Below are positions 2,631 through 57,782 of a stretch of DNA of 58,576 nt, one piece after another (position 1 is the stretch's first letter; every line of letters starts with the position of its first letter). The notes under the pieces were generated by a model that saw nothing but the letters and a program-made list of their open reading frames with translations, was not told where the DNA came from and did not search any database. The position numbers were made by a program, and so were the translations under genes. Origin of the DNA: Nanobdellota archaeon (lineage in GTDB: Archaea; Nanobdellota; Nanobdellia; Pacearchaeales; GW2011-AR1); contig JAUSIT010000038.1 of NCBI GenBank assembly GCA_030647965.1, forward strand, positions 1-58,576. Reading direction: 5' to 3'.

Positions 2631-3015
2631 AATAATTATTGATGCAGAAAACGAAGTTGTTGGAAGAATGGGAAGTTATGTTGCAAAAGAATTACTTAAA
2701 GGAAATGAAGTTATGATAGTAAATTCTGAAAAAGCAATAATTTCAGGAAACAAGGATGATATTGCTGGAAAATTAAGAAAAACAAGAAAAAAGGGTGGAT
2801 ATTCTATGAAAGGTCCTTTAATTTCAAAAATGCCTGATAGATTATTAAAAAGAATGATAAGAGGAATGTTGCCTTGGGAAACTCAAAGAGGAAGAACTGT
2901 TTATAGAAATTTAAAGTGTTATGTTGGAAATAAAACAAATGAAAAAGCAAAAAAATTAAACATTCAATTACCAAGAAAATATATTACAATTAAACAGATG
3001 ATAGATTTACTATGA
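2623..3015 (+). CDS. rpl13: 50S ribosomal protein L13 (uL13)
   Basis: IIDAENEVVGRMGSYVAKELLKG...MLPWETQRGR is typical of uL13. Overlaps its neighbours. Confidence 0.9.
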   Translation: MTKIIIDAENEVVGRMGSYVAKELLKGNEVMIVNSEKAIISGNKDDIAGKLRKTRKKGGYSMKGPLISKMPDRLLKRMIRGMLPWETQRGRTVYRNLKCYVGNKTNEKAKKLNIQLPRKYITIKQMIDLL

Positions 3016-3413
3016 ACTTCATGATAACTTCTGGAAAAAGAAAGACTGCAATAGCAAAAGCTACAATAAAATCTGGAAGTGGGATTATAACAATAAATAA
3101 AAAACCTGTTGAATTTTTTCCAATGCTTGCTCAATTAGAATTAAAAGAACCTTTAATGATCGCAGAAGAAACTCTTGGAAAATTAGAATTTGATATTAAT
3201 GTTAATGTTCATGGTGGCGGAACTGCATCAAGAATTGAAGCTTCAAGATTAGCAATTGCAAGAGCAATATTAAAATTTACAAAAAATGAAAAAATAAAAG
3301 CAGATTATTTAGTTTATGATAGAAATATGCTTGTTGCAGATACAAGAAGAAAAGAAGCATACAAACCAGGAGATTCAAAAGCAAGAGCAAAGAGACAGAC
3401 TTCTTATAGATGA
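3012..3413 (+). CDS. rps9: 30S ribosomal protein S9 (uS9)
   Basis: GKRKTAIAKATIKSGSG...GGGTASRIEASRLAIARA...PGDSKARAKRQTSYR is the uS9 signature, including the C-terminal YR. Confidence 0.9.
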   Translation: MNFMITSGKRKTAIAKATIKSGSGIITINKKPVEFFPMLAQLELKEPLMIAEETLGKLEFDINVNVHGGGTASRIEASRLAIARAILKFTKNEKIKADYLVYDRNMLVADTRRKEAYKPGDSKARAKRQTSYR

Positions 3414-19270: not shown

Positions 19271-21871
19271 ATGAAAATAGAACAGAAATTTGAGTATATA
19301 GATAAGAGAAATGAAAAACAAGTGTTAGCTAGTTTAGACCCTCTTGTAAAAGAATGGTTTTTTTCAAAGTTTAAGGATTTTTCTTTAACTCAGCTTTATG
19401 CAGTAATGCCTATTTTTGAAAGAAAAAATATATTAGTCTCTGCTCCAACAGGAGGAACTAAGACTTTAAGTGCATTTTTAAGTATTTTAAACTATTTAGT
19501 TATGCTTGCTAAAAAAGACGAATTAGAAGATAGAATCTATGCTGTTTATTGCTCTCCTTTAAAAGCACTAACTAATGATATTTATGTAAATTTAATTAGG
19601 CCTTTAAAAGAAATTGAAGAGCTTGCTGATACAAAAAATATTAAATTAAAGAAAATAAGAGTTGGTTTGAGAACAGGAGATAGTACTTCTTATGAAAAAG
19701 CAGTTATGTTAAAACACCCACCACATATTTTTGTTACAACTCCTGAAAGTTTAGCAATTACTATTAACTCCCCTAAGTTTTCTGAGAAATTAAGTTTAGT
19801 AGAATTTATGATTGTTGATGAAATACACTCTTTAGCTGAAAATAAAAGAGGGACTCATTTATCTTTAACACTAGAAAGGCTTCAAGATATATCAAAAATA
19901 GAAATAACAAGGATAGGGTTGTCTGCAACAGTTGCACCTTTGGAAAAGATAGCTGGTTTTTTAGTTGGAAGTAGTAGAAATTGTGAAATTGCAAGTGTTG
20001 AATTACTAAAAAAAGTTGAATTAGAGGTTTTAAGTCCTGTTGAAGATTTCTTAGATACTAATTCTATTGATTTAAACACTGGTTTGTATAAATTAATAGA
20101 TGAATTAATTGAAAAAAATAAAACGACTCTTATTTTTACTAATACTCGGGCTGCAACAGAGAGAATAGTTCATAATTTAAAAGAAAAATTTCCAAAATAC
20201 AATGAAAATATTGGTGCACATCACTCTTCTTTATCAAAAGAACATAGATTCGATATTGAAAAGAGATTAAGGGAGGGTAATTTAAGGGTTGTAGTATGTT
20301 CTACTTCATTAGAATTAGGTATTGATATTGGTTTTATTGATTTAGTTATTCTCCTTGGCTCTCCAAAGTCTGTTTCAAAGGCAATGCAAAGGATAGGAAG
20401 AGCAGGACATCAGTTACATGAAAAAGCAAAAGGCAAATTTATTGTTCATGATAGTGATGATTTAGTTGAGTGTTCTGTTATTTTAAAAAATATTATAGAG
20501 AAAAAAATAGATAGAGTTCATATTCCTATGAATTGTTTAGATGTTTTAAGTCAACATGTATATGGGATGGCTATTTCTAGAATTTGGAATGCAGATGAGA
20601 TGTATAATTTAATTAAAAAAAGTTATTGTTATAAAGATTTAACAAAAGAAGATTTTTTTTCTGTTATTTCTTATTTATCAGGAGCTTATGAACTAAATAC
20701 TAGAAATGTTTATCCAAAAATTTGGTTTGATGAAGAAAAAAGAGAGATAGGAAAGAGGGGAAAGCTTGCAAGAGTAATATATATGACTAATATTGGCACA
20801 ATACCTGATGAAAGTTTTATTAGTGTTATATGTAATAATGCAAAAATTGGCCAGATTGATGAAATCTTTTTAGAAAAAATGAAAAAAAATGATGTTTTTG
20901 TTTTAGGAGGCAATAAATATCAATTTTTATATACAAAAGGCATGAATATTTATGTAAAATCTGCTGAAGGAAAAAGACCAACAATTCCTTCTTGGTTTTC
21001 AGAGGTTTTGCCACTAACTTTTGATGCTGCAATTTCAATAAGCAAGTTTAGAAAATTATTAAATGAAAAATTTGAAAAAAATAAATCTCCATCTGAAATT
21101 AAGGAGTTTATTAAAGAATATGTTTATTCTAACAGCAAAACTAGTGAGTATATTTATAATTATTTTAGAGATCAGTTCAAATATTCGTTAATACCTCATG
21201 AAAATAGAATTTTAATTGAAGAATATAGGTCTGATAAAAATTATTTAGTATTTCATACTTTATTTGGAAGAAGAGTTAATGATACTTTGTCAAGAGCTAT
21301 TGGTTTTTTAGTTGCTTCTGCAAAAAAAAGAGATGTTGAAGTAGGAATAAGTGATAATGGATTTTATATTGCAGGAAAAGAGCTTGATTTAAGTAAAGTT
21401 GAATCAGCATTTAAGAAATTAACTAAAGAAAATATTAGAGAAACACTTGATGAAGCAATTGAAAAGACAGAAATATTAAAAAGAAGGTTTAGGCATTGTG
21501 CTGCAAGGGGTTTAATGATACTAAGAAACTATAAAGGCAATATAAAAAGTGTAGGAAGGCAACAAATGTCTTCTCATTTTATTTTAGCTGCTATAAATCA
21601 AAAGACAAAAGAGTTTCCTTTGCTTAAAGAAGCAAGAAGAGAGGTTTTGGAAGACCTAATGGATATTGAAAATGCAATAGAAGTATTAAAACTAATTGAA
21701 AATAAGACAATTAAGATAGAAAAAAAGAATACTAAAGTTATTTCTCCTTTTGCAATTAATATGATGCTTCAGGCACATACAGACGTTATAAGAATTGAAG
21801 ATAAAATAGAGTTTATTAAAAGAGTTTATGCTGAATTAAAAAGACAGGAAGATAAAAAAGAGGAATTATGA
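19271..21871 (+). CDS. lhr: Lhr-type ATP-dependent DExH helicase
   Basis: SAPTGGTKTL (motif I), VDEIHS (DExH), SAT, HHSSLSKEHR and QRIGRAGH, with a long C-terminal Lhr/DEAD-associated region. Confidence 0.85.
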   Translation: MKIEQKFEYIDKRNEKQVLASLDPLVKEWFFSKFKDFSLTQLYAVMPIFERKNILVSAPTGGTKTLSAFLSILNYLVMLAKKDELEDRIYAVYCSPLKALTNDIYVNLIRPLKEIEELADTKNIKLKKIRVGLRTGDSTSYEKAVMLKHPPHIFVTTPESLAITINSPKFSEKLSLVEFMIVDEIHSLAENKRGTHLSLTLERLQDISKIEITRIGLSATVAPLEKIAGFLVGSSRNCEIASVELLKKVELEVLSPVEDFLDTNSIDLNTGLYKLIDELIEKNKTTLIFTNTRAATERIVHNLKEKFPKYNENIGAHHSSLSKEHRFDIEKRLREGNLRVVVCSTSLELGIDIGFIDLVILLGSPKSVSKAMQRIGRAGHQLHEKAKGKFIVHDSDDLVECSVILKNIIEKKIDRVHIPMNCLDVLSQHVYGMAISRIWNADEMYNLIKKSYCYKDLTKEDFFSVISYLSGAYELNTRNVYPKIWFDEEKREIGKRGKLARVIYMTNIGTIPDESFISVICNNAKIGQIDEIFLEKMKKNDVFVLGGNKYQFLYTKGMNIYVKSAEGKRPTIPSWFSEVLPLTFDAAISISKFRKLLNEKFEKNKSPSEIKEFIKEYVYSNSKTSEYIYNYFRDQFKYSLIPHENRILIEEYRSDKNYLVFHTLFGRRVNDTLSRAIGFLVASAKKRDVEVGISDNGFYIAGKELDLSKVESAFKKLTKENIRETLDEAIEKTEILKRRFRHCAARGLMILRNYKGNIKSVGRQQMSSHFILAAINQKTKEFPLLKEARREVLEDLMDIENAIEVLKLIENKTIKIEKKNTKVISPFAINMMLQAHTDVIRIEDKIEFIKRVYAELKRQEDKKEEL

Positions 21872-22620
21872 ACATAGAAAGGTTTGAAGCTGTTGAAAGA
21901 GCATTGTTTTGGAAGGAAAAGAGAGTTTTAGTAATTGGAGATTTGCATTTTGGCTATGAAAACTATCTTCATGAAAGGGGATGGTCTTTTCCAAAGACAC
22001 AAATTAGTGAAAGTATAGAAATTTTGGGAAAAATATTTCAAAAAACGGGCAAATTAGCTCAGGTAATTATATTAGGTGATGTTAAACACTATTTTGGAGG
22101 TATTTTAAATGAAGAATTTTCAGATGTTTTGCAATTTTTTAATTTAATTAAAGAAAATTTGGATAAAAATGGAGAGATTATTATAATTAAAGGCAATCAT
22201 GACAACATCTTAGAACCTATTTTGAAAAAACAGGGGTTAAAGGAGTTTGTAAAACTAAAACAAGAGTATATTTTGGAAGATATTTTGTTTTTTCATGGTC
22301 ATAAAAGAGATTTTGAAAGAGTTAAACCTTTGTTAAAAGGTAAAAATATAAAAATAAGTATAATTGGGCACTTTCATCCTGCAATTAATCTAGAAGAAGA
22401 TGCTAAAAAAGAAAAATATAAGTGTTATTTGTATGGTAAGTCAAAGATTTTGAAAAAAGAGTTGATTATTGTACCTAGTTTTTTCCCTTTACTAGAAGGA
22501 ACTAATATTTTAGCAAAGGATTTTATGCTTGAAGGATGGTTAGATGTTTCAAATTTTGAGGTTTTTATTATAAGTGATAAAGTTTATGATTTTGGAAAGG
22601 TGAGTAAGATAAATAAATAG
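21868..22620 (+). CDS. Metallophosphoesterase, Lhr-associated (MPE/PdeM-like)
   Basis: GDLHFG, GDVKH, GNHD, HGH and GHFHP motifs. ATGA overlap with lhr. Confidence 0.8.
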   Translation: MNIERFEAVERALFWKEKRVLVIGDLHFGYENYLHERGWSFPKTQISESIEILGKIFQKTGKLAQVIILGDVKHYFGGILNEEFSDVLQFFNLIKENLDKNGEIIIIKGNHDNILEPILKKQGLKEFVKLKQEYILEDILFFHGHKRDFERVKPLLKGKNIKISIIGHFHPAINLEEDAKKEKYKCYLYGKSKILKKELIIVPSFFPLLEGTNILAKDFMLEGWLDVSNFEVFIISDKVYDFGKVSKINK

Positions 22621-28539: not shown

Positions 28540-30117
28540 ATGGAAAAAACAATCTTAAAAATTTGTATGGAGAAAGGTTTTTTATTAGATAAAGAGATGT
28601 TAAACTTACTTTCTGGATTAGATGAAGAGAGTGCTAAAAAATTAATTGAAAGCATTGTCAGCTTAAAATTTGAAGAAAAGGTTATAACAAAGACTTTTTT
28701 TTCAAAAAATCTTCAAAAAATTCAAGAAGTTTTAATTGATGGAAAAAATAAGACAGTTATTGAAAATCTGTTTTTTAATTTAGGTTATTCTAGAACAGAA
28801 ATTGAACAAAAAGAAGTAAGAAAAGAAGAAAAAGTAGAATTGATTGAAGAAAAACAAGGAAAAGTTAAATTATTATCTGTTTCGTTTGTTCCTCCTAAAA
28901 AAGTATGTGTTGCTGATTTTGTAAAACATTATAGAACAAGGTATGAACAAATTAAAAAAATACTTTTAGAAAGAAATTTAGATAATTTAACTTCTTTAAG
29001 GAAAATAGGGGATAAAAAAGAAAATTATACTATTATTGCTTCTGTTTTTGATAAAAGAATAACTAAAAATAAAAATCTTTTACTTAATGTTGAAGATTCT
29101 AGTGGAAGGGCAAGAATTTTAATAAATGCTAATAAAAAAGAGGTTTTTGATAAGGCTAAAGATCTTTTATTAGATGATATTGTTGCATTTCAAGTTTCTG
29201 GAAATAAAGAATGGCTTTATGCTAATGATGTTATTTTTCCTGATTGTGTATTGCATGAAAAGAAAAAATATGAAAAAGATGAATGGGTTGCTTTTAGTTC
29301 TGATGCTCATATAGGTTCTACTATGTTTTTAGAGGAAAATTTTAAAAAATTTTTAGAATGGCTTAATGGTGAAAGAGGGGATGAAAAACAAAAAGAAATT
29401 GCTAAAAAAGTAAAATATTTATTTTTAGTTGGAGATTGCATTGATGGTGTGGGAGTTTATCCTGATCAAGAGAGATTTTTAAATATTAAAAATATTAAAG
29501 ATCAATATAATAAACTTTCAGAATTTTTAAGATATTTAAGAAAAGATATTAAAATTATTTTATCTCCTGGGCAGCATGATGGTGTGAGAGTTGCAGAGCC
29601 TCAACCAATTGTAGAAGAGTCTTGGGCTCCTGAATTACATAAAATAGAAAATTTGACTTTGGTTCCAAATCCTGCTTTAGTTGAAATAGATGGGGGATTT
29701 AAAATTTTAATGTATCATGGAGCAAGTATGCATAGTATTATTGATGAAATTGAAGATATAAGATTAAATTATAAATCAAATTCACCTACAAGGGTTGTAA
29801 AAGAAATGTTAAAAAGAAGACATTTAGCTCCGACTCATAGTTCTGTTACATATATTCCTAATGAAAAAGAAGATCCTTTGTTAATTACACAAATTCCTGA
29901 TATTGTTGCAACAGGGGATTTGCACAGGCCTGAAATTTCTATTTATAATAATATTTTATTAATTGCATCTTCTTGTTGGCAGTCAATTACTCCTTTTGAA
30001 GAAAAAGTAGGCAATCATCCTGACCCTTGCAAAGTTCCTTTATTTAATTTAAAGACAAGAGAAATTAAAATAATAGATTTTGGAGACACTAAAGAAGATA
30101 AAGGAGAGGAAAAATGA
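28540..30117 (+). CDS. DNA polymerase II (PolD) small subunit DP1
   Basis: OB-fold region followed by calcineurin-like phosphoesterase motifs (SDAHIGS, VGDCIDG, PGQHD, YHG, TGDLH). Confidence 0.85.
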   Translation: MEKTILKICMEKGFLLDKEMLNLLSGLDEESAKKLIESIVSLKFEEKVITKTFFSKNLQKIQEVLIDGKNKTVIENLFFNLGYSRTEIEQKEVRKEEKVELIEEKQGKVKLLSVSFVPPKKVCVADFVKHYRTRYEQIKKILLERNLDNLTSLRKIGDKKENYTIIASVFDKRITKNKNLLLNVEDSSGRARILINANKKEVFDKAKDLLLDDIVAFQVSGNKEWLYANDVIFPDCVLHEKKKYEKDEWVAFSSDAHIGSTMFLEENFKKFLEWLNGERGDEKQKEIAKKVKYLFLVGDCIDGVGVYPDQERFLNIKNIKDQYNKLSEFLRYLRKDIKIILSPGQHDGVRVAEPQPIVEESWAPELHKIENLTLVPNPALVEIDGGFKILMYHGASMHSIIDEIEDIRLNYKSNSPTRVVKEMLKRRHLAPTHSSVTYIPNEKEDPLLITQIPDIVATGDLHRPEISIYNNILLIASSCWQSITPFEEKVGNHPDPCKVPLFNLKTREIKIIDFGDTKEDKGEEK

Positions 30118-48988: not shown

Positions 48989-49114
48989 ATGTCAGAAATT
49001 AAACTGCATCATTTATGATGTAGACGTAACCTTAGTGCGTTAATTTCTGAGCATCCTAAAAACAAGTGCCAATCAAACCCACACTTTTAAGTGTGGGTGG
49101 CACATTGTTTTTTT
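48989..49114 (+). repeat. HP-A composite repeat (long foot hairpin, second hairpin, T7 run)
   Basis: ATGTCAGAAATTAAACTGCATC...GCGTTAATTTCTGAGCATCCTAAAAACAAGTGCCAATCAAACCCACACTTTTAAGTGTGGGTGGCACATTGTTTTTTT. Confidence 0.7.
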
Positions 49115-49372
49115 GATACAATTAGCTTTTATATTGCTGATTTCATTTGCAGTAGCTTTGGCAAAATTCTTTAAGTCTTTTACATCTTCAGCAGTACTAT
49201 CAAGTTTATGCATTGCCCACCCCGCTAAATATACTACACCAAAAAGAGGGGCATATTCTAATAATAATGGTGTATTAATAACTCCTAGGGTTTTTAATAT
49301 AATCCAGATTAAAATTCCTCCTAAAACAACCCATGCCAATATATCCCAGGCATTTATTCCTCTTTTATTCAT
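49073..49372 (-). CDS. Small membrane protein; C-terminus encoded by repeat sequence
   Basis: Two TM helices. The last roughly 14 codons (KKTMCHPHLKVWV) lie in the second hairpin of the repeat at 49073-49114. Confidence 0.45.
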   Translation of the reverse strand: MNKRGINAWDILAWVVLGGILIWIILKTLGVINTPLLLEYAPLFGVVYLAGWAMHKLDSTAEDVKDLKNFAKATANEISNIKANCIKKTMCHPHLKVWV

Positions 49373-53383: not shown

Positions 53384-53456
53384 TAATTCTTGAGGTCCGA
53401 AAAACAAGTGCCAATCAAACCCACACTTTTAAGGGTGGGTGGCACATTGTTTTTTT
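53292..53456 (+). repeat. HP-A composite: three consecutive foot hairpins, second hairpin, T7 run
   Basis: ATGTCCGAAATT..AATTTCGGAGCAT, then GTCAAGATTTTACAATCTTGAGCAC, then ATCAAGAATTAATAATTCTTGAGGTCC, then GAAAAACAAGTGCCAATCAAACCCACACTTTTAAGGGTGGGTGGCACATTGTTTTTTT. Confidence 0.7.
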
Positions 53457-53534
53457 GATAATAGACATTAAATTGATTATATACTTTTAAGTACATATAG
53501 GTTTATAAAATAAAAGAGTTTATTTTGATAGAAG

Positions 53535-55289
53535 ATGGTGGATACAATATATCTTAAGGCTGATGAATTAAAATTGTTTAAATTTCTTAAGTCTCGTTCT
53601 TCTGATAGTTCTTTATGGCCTAGTTTAGAAGAAATACAAAAAAATCTTGAATTATCAAAACCTAATGCAAGAAAATTAGTAAAATCATTAAGGGAAAAAG
53701 AGGGTATTGAAATTTGTTCTAGTGTTGGAGGTTTTGGAAAAAATAAAAAAGTAAGTTATGGACTTTCTCCTGAAGATTTAGATATTTTAGTTACAATAGA
53801 TAATGCTCAGCAAAATAATGAAAAACAAAAGCCTAATGAGGTTTATTCTGCATTATATTTAGCAGAACCTGCTTTTGGAACAAAAGCTTTTGATGATAAA
53901 TATACTATGAAAGGGCTTGCTTTATTTTTAGAAACAAATAAGTTTTCTCCTGATTTACAAGAAGTTATTATTCAGGGAGGGGTTATTCCCCATATACCCC
54001 CTTATTATTCAAAAGGTTATGCAAATGACTTGAAGTTTTTAGGCAAAATAAAAAGAAATGGAGAAAGAACTTCACTATCTGAAACTTTACTTGAAGATAG
54101 AATTGAAAATGAATTTGAAAGAAATTTTTATGTAAAACATATAAATGATCCTGAAAGAAAAAAAATAACTAATTTAACAGATGCTTTTTCAGCTGCAGAA
54201 GAGCAGATTTCTATACTAATGAATACCCTGCCTGAAGATAGTGTTTTAAGAATCCAGTTTGGAGAAGAAGATAGAAAAAACATAGAACATTTGGAAGTTG
54301 CTCAAATTAAAAATTGGGCAAAAGAAAAAGCAGAGCAAATAGAAGGTATGTCTAAAGAATTAAAAGAAGAAGTTGAGGAGTTATATAATAATTCTTTTTC
54401 TACAATTGTTCAAAAGCATTATTTAGCTAGTTATTTACAAAATCCTAAATTAGTTAAAAAATCTAATGAAAAAAGAGCTGATTATTATAAAAGAGCTGGT
54501 GAATTTTTTAAAGAAGATAAATTAATGAGCGAAATATCTAATTTTTGGAAAGATTTTGGTAAATTTGTTTCTAATGATAAAGAAGAACAGGAAGGACTGA
54601 TTGAAGAAGATTCTAATGATTTATTAAAAGATGCAGTTGAAGATGCTGTAAAATATGTTTTTTGGGCAGGAAAAAATCCTGAAAAAATAAAGCAAAAATT
54701 TGAAAAAGTAAATAATGATTTTAGTAATCTTGAAATTGAAAAAAGAAATTTAAAATCAAAATTAGATGATTTGTCAAATTCTTTTACTTGGACAGATAGT
54801 TTATTGAATTCGGGTAGTGTTGATGTAACTTGGTTTACTAAGCAATATCCTGTTTTTGCAGATGAACTTGAATTTGGATTTAAAAAAGTAAAAGATAAGT
54901 ATTCTGGTCATTTTTTTAAATGGAAGATTGGGCAGCCAGTAGTTGTTCATGTTTCTCCTAGAAAAAATGTAAAAATTGATACAGGAATTATTGAAAATCT
55001 TTCAAATGGAGAAAAATCAATAGCAGAAATTGATTATGAAATTGTTTCAAATGGAAAAAAGAATATATTGCTTGTTCATAATTTAAATCATATTTTTTCA
55101 GATAATGTTTCTCCAAGCACTATTAAAGATGCAAAACTAGAAATGAATTATGAAAATATTGTTTTAAATAAATTATTTGAAGAAGAGTTTAAGGGAAAGA
55201 CCCCTGATATTGTTTTATTGGGCGGGCATCATTCAGGCGGTTTTAGGGTTATGCCTTGGTTTAAAAAATCAGAACAATTAATTGAATGA
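53535..55289 (+). CDS. wHTH plus coiled-coil protein with degenerate metallophosphoesterase-like motifs; ends at a TGA in frame with the next ORF
   Basis: N-terminal LFKFLKSRS..LEEIQKNLELSKPNARKLVKSLREKEG (wHTH-like). LYLAEPAFG, IIQGGV and VLLGGHHSGG align in order with the MPE motifs of 55320-56522 but lack the catalytic D/H/N residues. Confidence 0.55.
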   Translation: MVDTIYLKADELKLFKFLKSRSSDSSLWPSLEEIQKNLELSKPNARKLVKSLREKEGIEICSSVGGFGKNKKVSYGLSPEDLDILVTIDNAQQNNEKQKPNEVYSALYLAEPAFGTKAFDDKYTMKGLALFLETNKFSPDLQEVIIQGGVIPHIPPYYSKGYANDLKFLGKIKRNGERTSLSETLLEDRIENEFERNFYVKHINDPERKKITNLTDAFSAAEEQISILMNTLPEDSVLRIQFGEEDRKNIEHLEVAQIKNWAKEKAEQIEGMSKELKEEVEELYNNSFSTIVQKHYLASYLQNPKLVKKSNEKRADYYKRAGEFFKEDKLMSEISNFWKDFGKFVSNDKEEQEGLIEEDSNDLLKDAVEDAVKYVFWAGKNPEKIKQKFEKVNNDFSNLEIEKRNLKSKLDDLSNSFTWTDSLLNSGSVDVTWFTKQYPVFADELEFGFKKVKDKYSGHFFKWKIGQPVVVHVSPRKNVKIDTGIIENLSNGEKSIAEIDYEIVSNGKKNILLVHNLNHIFSDNVSPSTIKDAKLEMNYENIVLNKLFEEEFKGKTPDIVLLGGHHSGGFRVMPWFKKSEQLIE

Positions 55290-55319
55290 GAGTTTGTAAA
55301 AAATCAGGATATTTCTTAT

Positions 55320-56522
55320 TTGATTAATTTGCCTACTTTGCAAGATATAAGAAAATTAGAATGGCTTGTTGAAAAAGGATTTAGAAACTGGCATACTAAA
55401 AATTATCAAAAAGGACCTTATGCTTCTGGTGCTGTTTTACATAGTGAAACTAAAGATGGTGTAAATAGATTTACTATGATTGATACAAGTTTGTTAATGA
55501 AATTTGGGAAAATAGCAGAAGAAATTGAAGTTTATAGGGAACAATTAAAGCAAGATTTAAGTGAAGAAAATAGAAATAAGATTTTAGAACTAATTAAAGA
55601 AAGAAAAGAAAGTGTTAAATTAAATTTAAGTAAAATTGAAGCTGCAGGTGATTTTCATTTAGGTGCTCCTGATAACTTAGATAGATATTCAAAAGATCAG
55701 TTTATCAAAGCTTCACAAATTTATCAATTAGAACATGGACTTCCTAATATTGTTTCTTGGGATGAAATTGCTCATGGGACAATGGAAAGAACTTTTAATA
55801 GTGCTTCTAGATATGAAGGCTTGATTCCTGAAAAATTTAAACAAGTAGTTATTGATAAAATTTTAGCAAGTGATTTAACAGGAGAACAAAAGGCTTATGA
55901 AATTGCAAAAGAATCTATGAGAAATTTAAGAGCAATAACAATCCATAATAATTCAGAGCAAAAACATTTGTTTAAACTATTATTAAAGCCATATGCTGAT
56001 AAAATTTTAGAAAACAATGGGAAATTGATTTTAACTAGTGGAAATCATTTTAATAAATCAAATCCAACTTCTGACGAAGCTTTGGAATTTGCAAATCAGT
56101 TTTCAGAAGAGTATATTGATAATGGGCAAATAGCTGTTTTTTCTGGAAAAGGCAATGATGTTGGTGTTGGTGCTTTAAGACTTGATAATAATCAGAAAAT
56201 CTTTGTTATGCATAAATTTCCTGAAAGAAATGATGAAATCTATGGTATAATGACTCATTTAAGAAAAATGAATAATGATGCAGATATTGTAATTGCAGGA
56301 GATAGGCATCATCCTGGTGCTGGTTATGCTGATGGGCATTTTATTGCATTACATCCTGGTTATGAACCAATTAATAAATTTGTTCCTTTAATTGGAAAGC
56401 CTGCAGGAGTAAGGGGTTTTAATAATGTATTTTATGATTCTGATAAAAAAGGGGTTTATGCTGTTGAATTTGTATTAAATCCTACTTTAGAAAAGATAAT
56501 TGAGAAAGAAAAGATTATTTGA
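55320..56522 (+). CDS. Metallophosphoesterase (calcineurin-like), same frame as 53535-55289
   Basis: AAGDFHLGAP, WDEIAHG, SGNHF, VMHKF and AGDRHHPG. The track start is TTG. The frame is continuous with the upstream ORF apart from TGA 55287-55289. Confidence 0.6.
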   Translation: MINLPTLQDIRKLEWLVEKGFRNWHTKNYQKGPYASGAVLHSETKDGVNRFTMIDTSLLMKFGKIAEEIEVYREQLKQDLSEENRNKILELIKERKESVKLNLSKIEAAGDFHLGAPDNLDRYSKDQFIKASQIYQLEHGLPNIVSWDEIAHGTMERTFNSASRYEGLIPEKFKQVVIDKILASDLTGEQKAYEIAKESMRNLRAITIHNNSEQKHLFKLLLKPYADKILENNGKLILTSGNHFNKSNPTSDEALEFANQFSEEYIDNGQIAVFSGKGNDVGVGALRLDNNQKIFVMHKFPERNDEIYGIMTHLRKMNNDADIVIAGDRHHPGAGYADGHFIALHPGYEPINKFVPLIGKPAGVRGFNNVFYDSDKKGVYAVEFVLNPTLEKIIEKEKII

Positions 56523-56554: not shown

Positions 56555-56665
56555 TAAAACCTTACTATTTTGGCAGTAAAAAAATGACCTTTCTCCTTAG
56601 GCATATTCATAAACCTTACTATTTTGGCAGTAAAAACGTTGAGTTTATGCACTATTTTGGCAGTA
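56555..56665 (+). promoter_or_regulatory. Three direct ACTATTTTGGCAGTA boxes (dyad TACT-N8-AGTA)
   Basis: TAAAACCTTACTATTTTGGCAGTAAAAA at 56555-56583, repeated at 56610-56636, with a shorter CACTATTTTGGCAGTA at 56650-56665. Confidence 0.45.
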
Positions 56666-56735
56666 TATATTTAGAGTACAATTGAAAATATTTGTCTACA
56701 AAATAGGATATGTCTACATTTTTGTCTACAAATGA

Positions 56736-57692
56736 CTATTTTATCTTTTTTTTGGTTTCTTTATATTCTTTTAGAATAAATTCAATTGTTGGACGGAGAT
56801 TATTATTTTTTTCGTATTCTTGTAGTGTTTTATAATATTCAAATCTATGATTTAATTTAATATTAACTGGGGGGAGACCTTTCTTTAGAAGAATATTATT
56901 CAATAGTATTCTTCCAACTCGACCATTACCATCTGCAAATGGGTGAATATTCTCAAACTGATTATGAACAACTGCTGCAAGAATTAGTGCAGGATATTTA
57001 TCTTTATGATTTTCATACCACTTTATCAATTCATTTAATAAAGAGATGACTCTAGATTGAGGTGCACCTTCGTGAACTATTCCTTCTTGACCCATTACTA
57101 CTACTTCTTCTCCAAACTTTCTAAATTCTCCTGCAAAATTTTTAGAATTTTTAAAAACAATTTTATGAATCTCTTTGATTAAATTTAGAGAAATATGTTC
57201 TTTTGTCTGTCGTATATAACTTATTGCTTCACTTACTCCATAAGTTTCAGCAACATCTTCTTTGCTTTTATCTTTAGGCCAGTTTCCCCTTTCCAAAATT
57301 TCTTTTACTTCAATATTTGTTAATCTACTTCCTTCAATTGCATTAGTGTTATATGTAAACAATTCTGAAAAAATAGCCCATTTATCTTCTGAAAGATGAA
57401 TTATTTTGAGATTTGCTTCTTTTTCAAGATGCATTACAAATTTGATTTCTTCTGTTGATAATTCTGTTTCAATAGGATCTTTTAGTACTTTATATTTCTC
57501 AATTTCTTCTAAAATCAATTTTTCAGCTTTATTTTTTCTTTCTTCTAGCACTTCTTTTGTTAAATCTGTTCCAAGTAGTTTTCTTATTTTGTGCACTTTT
57601 CCATCTTCTCTAAAAGAATGAGCTAGATAATATTTTATCTTTCCACGAACATTTCTTTTCTCAAGATACATAACATTATAGTGGGTGACCAC
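56736..57692 (-). CDS. Fic family protein (long form)
   Basis: Fic motif HPFADGNGRVGR. The track start is GTG 57692; ATG at 57671 (MYLEKRN) is an alternative. Confidence 0.8.
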   Translation of the reverse strand: MVTHYNVMYLEKRNVRGKIKYYLAHSFREDGKVHKIRKLLGTDLTKEVLEERKNKAEKLILEEIEKYKVLKDPIETELSTEEIKFVMHLEKEANLKIIHLSEDKWAIFSELFTYNTNAIEGSRLTNIEVKEILERGNWPKDKSKEDVAETYGVSEAISYIRQTKEHISLNLIKEIHKIVFKNSKNFAGEFRKFGEEVVVMGQEGIVHEGAPQSRVISLLNELIKWYENHKDKYPALILAAVVHNQFENIHPFADGNGRVGRILLNNILLKKGLPPVNIKLNHRFEYYKTLQEYEKNNNLRPTIEFILKEYKETKKKIK

Positions 57693-57739
57693 ATATTTAA
57701 ACTTTTCTACATTTTTGTCTACAATCTACCCTTAAATCT

Positions 57740-57782
57740 AAATTCCCTTTTTAAATGTGGGTGGCACATTGTTTTTTTGATA
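57740..57782 (+). repeat. Partial HP-A composite (3' half of the second hairpin plus T7 run)
   Basis: ..TTTTTAAATGTGGGTGGCACATTGTTTTTTTGATA. The 26-nt stretch 57757-57782 is identical to 49093-49118 and 53435-53460. Confidence 0.6.

Follow-up and report, generated by a model that had tools for sequence, protein, structure and literature searches.

The 58,576-nucleotide (nt) contig JAUSIT010000038.1 of a Nanobdellota archaeon (assembly GCA_030647965.1), referred to here as the window, carries on its forward strand (positions 53,535 to 56,522) a gene whose reading frame is broken by a single in-frame TGA codon. This stretch very probably represents one gene, which codes for a protein of about 995 amino acids (aa) belonging to a single-chain family of DPANN archaea and which was hit by a very recent GGA to TGA change, without any involvement of readthrough, recoding or a two-gene design. 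The intact product would consist of a winged helix-turn-helix (wHTH), an α/β domain lacking metal-binding residues and bearing a coiled-coil arm of about 215 residues, a helical linker and a metallophosphoesterase (MPE) domain. A G to T substitution would have turned the Gly codon GGA at codon 585 into TGA; this change would be very recent and is probably not fixed. As the sequence is written, translation would end inside the N-terminal domain, thereby yielding a 584-aa fragment devoid of the catalytic domain.

The gene starts with the ATG at position 53535 and runs for 584 codons to the TGA at positions 55287-55289. Beyond this codon, the frame stays open through the residues EFVKNQDISY, a TTG at position 55320 and 400 further codons, until it reaches a second TGA at positions 56520-56522. 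The G+C content of the window is 27%, which makes stop codons frequent in random frames, and the 410 stop-free codons past the internal TGA are therefore not a product of chance. When both strands were scanned, this was the sole TGA in the 58.6-kb window that is flanked by at least 80 open codons of the same frame on each side. The initial annotation had described a 995-codon frame with a single in-frame TGA, and both its coordinates and its reading are correct.

Relatives of the protein were collected in several ways. In a representative phmmer search of 50%-identity clusters, the read-through translation matched 116 proteins with E<=1e-3, some of which are full-length, while others are fragments from contig ends and a few match through the coiled coil alone. 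At least ten of the full-length matches, with 979-1017 aa, align end to end with the query at 39-52% identity, and the named ones are all 'hypothetical protein' entries from metagenome-assembled genomes (MAGs) of Pacearchaeota or Nanoarchaeia. When the downstream 400 aa served as query, a word-indexed search recovered partial relatives that read across the site as ..MPWFK.SE..I[EDN]-G-EF... Furthermore, pattern-based scans, which are independent of gene calls, identified 8 loci in GTDB species genomes, assigned to Nanoarchaeota, Woesearchaeota and Pacearchaeota, and 19 metagenome loci. After removal of duplicates, 17 full-length relatives of about 990-1013 aa remained, all 17 of which are single open reading frames (ORFs) without stops or frameshifts; a two-ORF arrangement with separate starts as the family norm was found in none of them. 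The proposal that the window holds one interrupted gene and not two genes is thus borne out, as the homologs, which might have turned out to be consistently separate genes, are fused and carry a sense codon at the site in question.

In 21 non-redundant relatives, the codon aligned to the TGA encodes Gly in 15 cases (10 GGA, three GGT and two GGG), Ala in three and His, Asp and Glu in one case each. A stop is present at this codon in none of the 21 relatives, whose loci were found regardless of ORF integrity. One of them, locus L004, has flanks that are identical to those of the window gene and contains GGA in place of the TGA (TTA ATT GAA GGA GAG TTT GT). The predominance of Gly and the identical flanks of L004 with GGA lead to the conclusion that the lesion is a single G to T change of GGA to TGA.

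The same comparison bears on a true split, in which the N-terminal piece would end at the TGA, the C-terminal piece would re-initiate at TTG 55320 and both parts would reassemble. The TTG begins just 30 nt past the stop and is preceded by an AGGA 10 nt upstream, gene callers report two genes in the window as well as in the related loci L001 and L003, and a 1-nt deletion in L003 has created a TGATG stop/start overlap. However, the TTG aligns to Leu, Met or Ile of the homologs (Table 1) and is a conserved internal Leu codon (Leu596) and no start signal; this residue lies within a strand predicted by AlphaFold2 (residues 593-598). Moreover, ATG is the start codon of 34 of the window's 37 genes (a motif resembling a Shine-Dalgarno sequence precedes the start in just five of the 37), each split copy is broken at a different place by a different lesion, and all 17 full-length relatives are fused. 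A split gene is therefore highly improbable.

Programmed or tolerated readthrough of the UGA would yield two isoforms, mostly a 584-aa protein composed of the wHTH and the coiled coil, and a fraction of full-length enzyme. Such a mechanism would fit the downstream frame, which is perfectly open and conserved, and the position of the TGA in a substitution-tolerant loop. It is nevertheless improbable, though slightly less so than the split: a programmed signal would be conserved, yet stops in or close to this position are missing from all 21 relatives, the real terminator of the same gene is also TGA, and the break in an independent assembly falls on exactly this base. In addition, the shorter isoform would be cut off within a folded domain. 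In the AlphaFold2 model, residue 585 is located in a loop of the N-terminal α/β domain that connects two strands (570-576 and 593-598). As about 65 residues of this domain come after the TGA, the stop is not placed at a domain boundary.

The use of TGA as a terminator in this genome speaks against a changed genetic code. TGA ends the genes for S4 (283-828), L13 (2623-3015), S9 (3012-3413), DP1, an Lhr-type helicase and an ABC ATPase, and several of these terminators form ATGA stop/start overlaps with the next gene; in the case of S9, the Pfam profile reaches the last residue before the TGA. The earlier statement that TGA is a genuine stop elsewhere in the window is correct for S4, L13 and S9, whereas its label S13 is not, since the gene at 283-828 encodes S4 according to Pfam. 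This gene is followed by that for S11, again with an ATGA overlap. Genome-wide recoding, which the initial annotation had excluded, is indeed excluded by the fact that TGA ends conserved genes, including the interrupted gene itself. A decoding of TGA as Gly, by a reassignment resembling genetic code 25 or by a dedicated suppressor tRNA, would agree with the ancestral residue Gly and with an ancestral codon, GGA, that is one base away from TGA. Six conserved genes that end in TGA, several ATGA overlaps, the occurrence of only one such in-frame TGA in 58.6 kb and the lack of a tRNA with the anticodon UCA in the window, where the only tRNAs are tRNA-Leu(AAG) and tRNA-Ser(CGA), render this explanation negligible. 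A related idea, which has very little probability, is that Pacearchaeota-type archaea decode UGA at a low level via a near-cognate tRNA or a suppressor resembling tRNA-Gly(UCA). If this were true, GGA to TGA alleles in accessory nuclease genes might be tolerated or even kept as expression dimmers.

The part of the gene that follows the stop is as well conserved as in the relatives. Its 410 codons retain every invariant residue, including all catalytic residues, and the C/N identity ratio is 1.34 for the window gene compared with 1.26 +/- 0.11 for other pairs. The absence of decay downstream of the stop indicates that the change is very recent, has not been fixed or is a consensus artefact. The sole public run that contains this genome, X1, is a groundwater metagenome. 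Of the words sampled from the 1-kb stretch 54800-55800, 94% are present in X1, whose contigs match with 0 mismatches; of those sampled from 55250-55345, it contains only one of six. Independent Logan contigs of X1 stop at position 55286, the base before the T of the TGA, and restart at position 55308. With about 7 contig breaks per 18.6 kb, the chance that a break falls at exactly 55286/55287 is about 4e-4, and the break suggests read heterogeneity at position 55287. At k=31, such a gap would be expected if the reads were heterogeneous at two positions, 55287 and 55307 (third base of a CAG codon). As X1 is represented by contigs alone, we infer the other allele at 55287 from the contig break. 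The TGA is, with modest confidence, assigned to a nonsense allele that segregates in the sampled population; that the site is heterogeneous and the TGA an artefact of the consensus or of the assembly is a less likely, tentative explanation. Among the three options offered in the initial annotation, a recent nonsense change and a sequence or assembly variant are thereby favoured and programmed readthrough is disfavoured.

Several points weigh against the reading of the locus as a single nuclease gene with a recent nonsense change. The base alternative to T at position 55287 was deduced and never observed in reads, and the contig break could have another cause. The loop that harbours the TGA accepts Gly, Ala, His, Asp and Glu, so that a readthrough product would probably work, and leaky decoding is possible. 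The function ascribed to the protein rests on a predicted fold and on motif conservation, with no curated model matching. Finally, the breaks in five disrupted copies of the gene (window, L001, L003, L013 and L014) all fall into the range of residues ~433 to 585, which looks non-random.

The lesions in these other copies are of different kinds. L001 (4760-4800) lacks one T of a T run and has no slippery site, and L003 (2600-2630) lacks one A of ATAATG; these two 1-nt deletions are located 2-3 codons apart, at window codons ~512-515. L013 (500-820) has two frameshifts, at residues ~433 and ~535, and in L014 (30-40) the frame is interrupted by a TAA that precedes the counterpart of the window's TGA, the Gly position, by six codons. 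The disrupted loci had been chosen for half-size fragments, which is a biased selection, and the clustering of the lesions may in large part be an ascertainment effect. Recurrent selected splitting at ~433-585 was considered but is not favoured, since all 17 non-redundant full-length loci from the gene-call-independent scans are intact; the only other lesion encountered in these scans is a TAG at residue ~271 near a contig end (L028). Programmed -1 frameshifting at the A_AAA_AAG that immediately precedes the frame break of L003 was rejected, as the same heptamer is present in frame in the intact loci L009, L011 and L004. The deletion in L003 turns ATA ATG ATG into ATA TGA TG (2616-2626), and stop/start overlaps like the resulting TGATG can serve translational coupling; both pieces could in principle be made. 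Three N-terminal fragments, P0032, P0033 and P0034, were discarded as lesions, since they result from a contig end (L015), an Illumina adapter (L017) and the end of a junk scaffold (L016). In the case of L017 (5122-5134), the Logan contig ends in the Illumina adapter GATCGGAAGAGC, which creates a false stop and thereby a false 373-aa 'protein' in a public protein collection.

The domain layout was derived from an AlphaFold2 model of the read-through protein, which was computed with 19 aligned sequences and has a mean pLDDT (predicted local distance difference test) of 83 and a pTM (predicted template modelling score) of 0.74. The architecture that the initial annotation had proposed, a wHTH, a coiled coil and a C-terminal MPE fold with conserved catalytic residues, is essentially right, and the motifs it had listed (AAGDFHLGAP, SGNHF, MHKF and AGDRHH as well as LYLAEPAFG and LLGGHHSGGF) are each found in the sequence as given. 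Table 1 summarizes the features of the gene.

Table 1. Features of the interrupted gene and their positions in the window
Feature	Position	Strand	Basis
Whole gene (995 sense codons plus terminal TGA, 1 internal TGA)	53535..56522	+	End-to-end alignment to single-chain homologs of 979-1017 aa
N-terminal wHTH, residues 1-90	53535..53804	+	Weak HTH_36/DnaD_N; AdcR/LexA (PDB profiles); Foldseek MepR/MarR, prob 1.0
N-terminal α/β domain, part 1, residues 102-243	53838..54263	+	AlphaFold2 model and conservation; strand ends LYLAEPAFG, QGG, GEED
Long helical (antiparallel coiled-coil) insertion, residues 244-461, ~215 aa	54264..54917	+	AlphaFold2 secondary structure; coiled-coil matches
N-terminal α/β domain, part 2, residues 462-650	54918..55484	+	Invariant H472 and GGHH 563-566; AlphaFold2 and conservation
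In-frame TGA, codon 585, in place of ancestral Gly codon GGA	55287..55289	+	Codons of relatives at the aligned site
21 bases absent from the Logan contigs of X1	55287..55307	.	Contig ends; no cover even at 85% likeness
TTG called as start of the downstream piece by the ORF finder	55320..55322	+	L, M or I at the aligned site of the homologs (block ISYLINLPT)
Helical linker, residues 651-692	55485..55610	+	AlphaFold2 model
C-terminal MPE-fold domain (predicted), residues 693-995	55611..56519	+	Invariant motifs, AlphaFold2 strands, Foldseek
Natural terminator, TGA	56520..56522	+	Conserved C-terminus of the family; homologs end in the same column (..KII / NII)

The C-terminal domain contains the catalytic motifs I (D706-x-H708, 55650-55658), II (D743-E744, 55761-55766), III (G836-N-H838, 56040-56048), IV (H893, 56211-56213) and V (G922-D-R-H925, 56298-56309). 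The five motifs occur in this order, are invariant or nearly so among the relatives (G922-[D/H]-x-H925 in the case of motif V) and are each located at the C-terminal end of a β strand; close relatives have the variant forms D/S-E of motif II and G-D-x-H of motif V. A Foldseek search of the PDB with the full model retrieved PolD DP1 (E 1e-4), Rv0805, Mre11, purple acid phosphatase, Vps29 and GpdQ with probabilities of 0.9-1.0, in addition to winged helices of the MarR type, and a fold search against BFVD returned phage proteins of about 400 aa that are annotated as 'metallophosphatase / DNA polymerase II small subunit' (E 1e-6). Alignment ranges are absent from the Foldseek results, and the assignment of the four-layer α/β-β/α MPE fold to the C-terminal domain rests on the motifs. 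The block around motif V can be aligned to the DP1 encoded in the window over 44 columns. None of 19 members of the family matches Pfam Metallophos or Metallophos_2 at E<=1, although the same Pfam library does detect the window's DP1 and an MPE protein linked to the Lhr-type helicase. Searches of Pfam, NCBIfam, PHROG and PADLOC gave no model match beyond a weak HTH, and PDB sequence profiles matched to the wHTH and the coiled coils only. The claim that all five canonical MPE motifs are intact is not supported as it stands: the catalytic residues are conserved, but motifs II and V are variant and a Pfam Metallophos match is missing in the 19 members. The C-terminal domain is predicted to be a divergent metallophosphoesterase of the DP1/Mre11 type with conserved catalytic residues, and the protein may be a metal-dependent nuclease or phosphodiesterase that acts on DNA.

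The N-terminal α/β domain contains remnants of strand-end motifs in fitting order (EP, GG, GEED, H472 and GGHH), and an alignment of the N-terminal with the C-terminal domain by hhalign, though co-linear over 114 columns, is non-significant (E=0.16). When the N-terminal half was folded alone, a low-confidence model (pLDDT 66) without significant fold match was obtained, for which the top match is an SMC head with coiled coil (E 6e-3) and the best MPE is Mre11 (E 0.22). The suggestion that the two halves are paralogous is therefore consistent with the order of the strand-end remnants, but it finds no backing in the hhalign comparison or in the model of the N-terminal half, and a dead MPE is no more than a plausible identity for the N-terminal domain.

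The neighbourhood of the gene varies from lineage to lineage, and several genes with a link to DNA repair are found near members of the family. A gene for a short-form XPF/ERCC4 nuclease (ERCC4 and HhH domains) lies convergently downstream in L001, L006 (9043-9744), L008 (3847-4485) and L010, and a LigD 3'-phosphoesterase gene is present beside the family gene in L003, L004, L007 (8979-9350) and L011. The XPF or LigD gene is convergent and only 4-20 nt away from the end of the family gene in L008, L006 and L007, which represent two sub-lineages, and at least one gene or 150-1200 nt away in L001, L003, L004, L010 and L011. In L001 and L002, genes for Ada Zn-binding or MGMT proteins come after the family gene. 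These XPF, LigD 3'-phosphoesterase and Ada/MGMT neighbours hint at a role in DNA repair, though they are not operonic. Upstream of the window gene, the genes for an M16 peptidase and a diphthamide synthase are syntenic with L001, L006 and L010. The Fic gene, whose adjacency the initial annotation had noted, is found beside the family gene only in the window and is absent at all related loci; a system with Fic is not supported, and the adjacency is incidental.

Some further elements were noticed in the window. At positions 19271-22620, a gene for an Lhr-type helicase (DEAD, WH_Lhr and DEAD_assoc domains) is followed, with an ATGA overlap, by a gene for a 250-aa Metallophos protein, a pair which we take to match the bacterial Lhr-MPE operon; it indicates that the genome has conventional MPE genes that can be detected by Pfam. 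A direct repeat of 65 nt is present at 49054-49118 and 53396-53460 (97% identical), and a partial copy at 57718-57782 shares its 3' 27 nt. The element folds as a strong hairpin (-25 kcal/mol, z -4.5) with an A run on one side and a T run on the other. Its word depth in X1 is about 164 compared with about 12 in the flanks, so that the genome either contains multiple copies of it or shares it with others in the community. The ATG of the interrupted gene lies 75 nt downstream of one of the copies, and the Logan contigs break at every copy. The spacer between the stop of this gene and Fic (56557-56677) contains AAACCTTACTATTTTGGCAGTAAAAA twice, as exact copies 54 nt apart, which are followed by a shorter third copy, ACTATTTTGGCAGTA. 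Furthermore, TCTACA/GTCTACA units are found on either side of Fic (56713-56746 and 57706-57739).

The stop is of no importance by itself, as recent nonsense changes or strain variants usually leave such a mark in MAGs; annotation pipelines should merge both ORFs into one interrupted gene. The interest of the gene lies in its predicted product, a protein of about 1000 residues in which a DNA-binding winged helix, a catalytically dead α/β domain with its coiled-coil arm and a live DP1/Mre11-like phosphoesterase are combined. A literature search at the level of titles and abstracts yielded no paper on such a protein, and the family is undescribed, restricted to DPANN archaea and not covered by a curated model. 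Since these archaea have minimal genomes, such a large, dedicated nuclease made as a single chain can be tested as a candidate for an activity in DNA repair or DNA processing that has so far gone unrecognised.

Among the closest known counterparts is DP1, the small subunit of PolD and the archaeal 3'-5' proofreading exonuclease. In the fold searches with the full-length model, DP1 (PDB 5ihe, 6hmf, 8ppt and 9f2a) and phage small-subunit proteins scored best. Motif V has the form G-D-x-H in DP1 as well, and the MPE of DP1 acts on DNA. Unlike DP1, the family has neither a DNA_pol_E_B or Metallophos Pfam match nor a recognised oligonucleotide/oligosaccharide-binding (OB) fold, and the window gene encodes an additional wHTH, a second, degenerate α/β domain and a coiled coil, with about twice the size. 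The genome's own DP1 is encoded beside DP2 (28540-30117), and this separate DP1-DP2 pair, the lack of a Pfam match and an alignment that is limited to the 44 columns around motif V rule out that the window gene is DP1 itself. A second comparison can be made with the Mre11/SbcD proteins and their partners Rad50/SbcC, with which the protein shares the MPE fold (4tug, prob 1.0) and the overall build, in which a long arm of antiparallel coiled coil extends from a globular head. In contrast to Mre11-Rad50, it is a single chain without ABC ATPase or Walker motifs, zinc hook or match to the Mre11 capping domain, its coiled coil is inserted into a non-ATPase domain, and its neighbours are convergent and not operonic. 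Regarding the stop, an in-frame UGA followed by a conserved open frame is reminiscent of programmed readthrough and selenocysteine insertion; however, the stop is kept in none of the 21 relatives, which have Gly or Ala and not Cys at this position, and the position is non-catalytic. Except for its affiliation with an uncharacterised family, the gene does not differ from ordinary nonsense-mutated genes of MAGs, with which it shares the change of a single base from sense to stop, the intact relatives, the absence of decay downstream and the apparent read heterogeneity.

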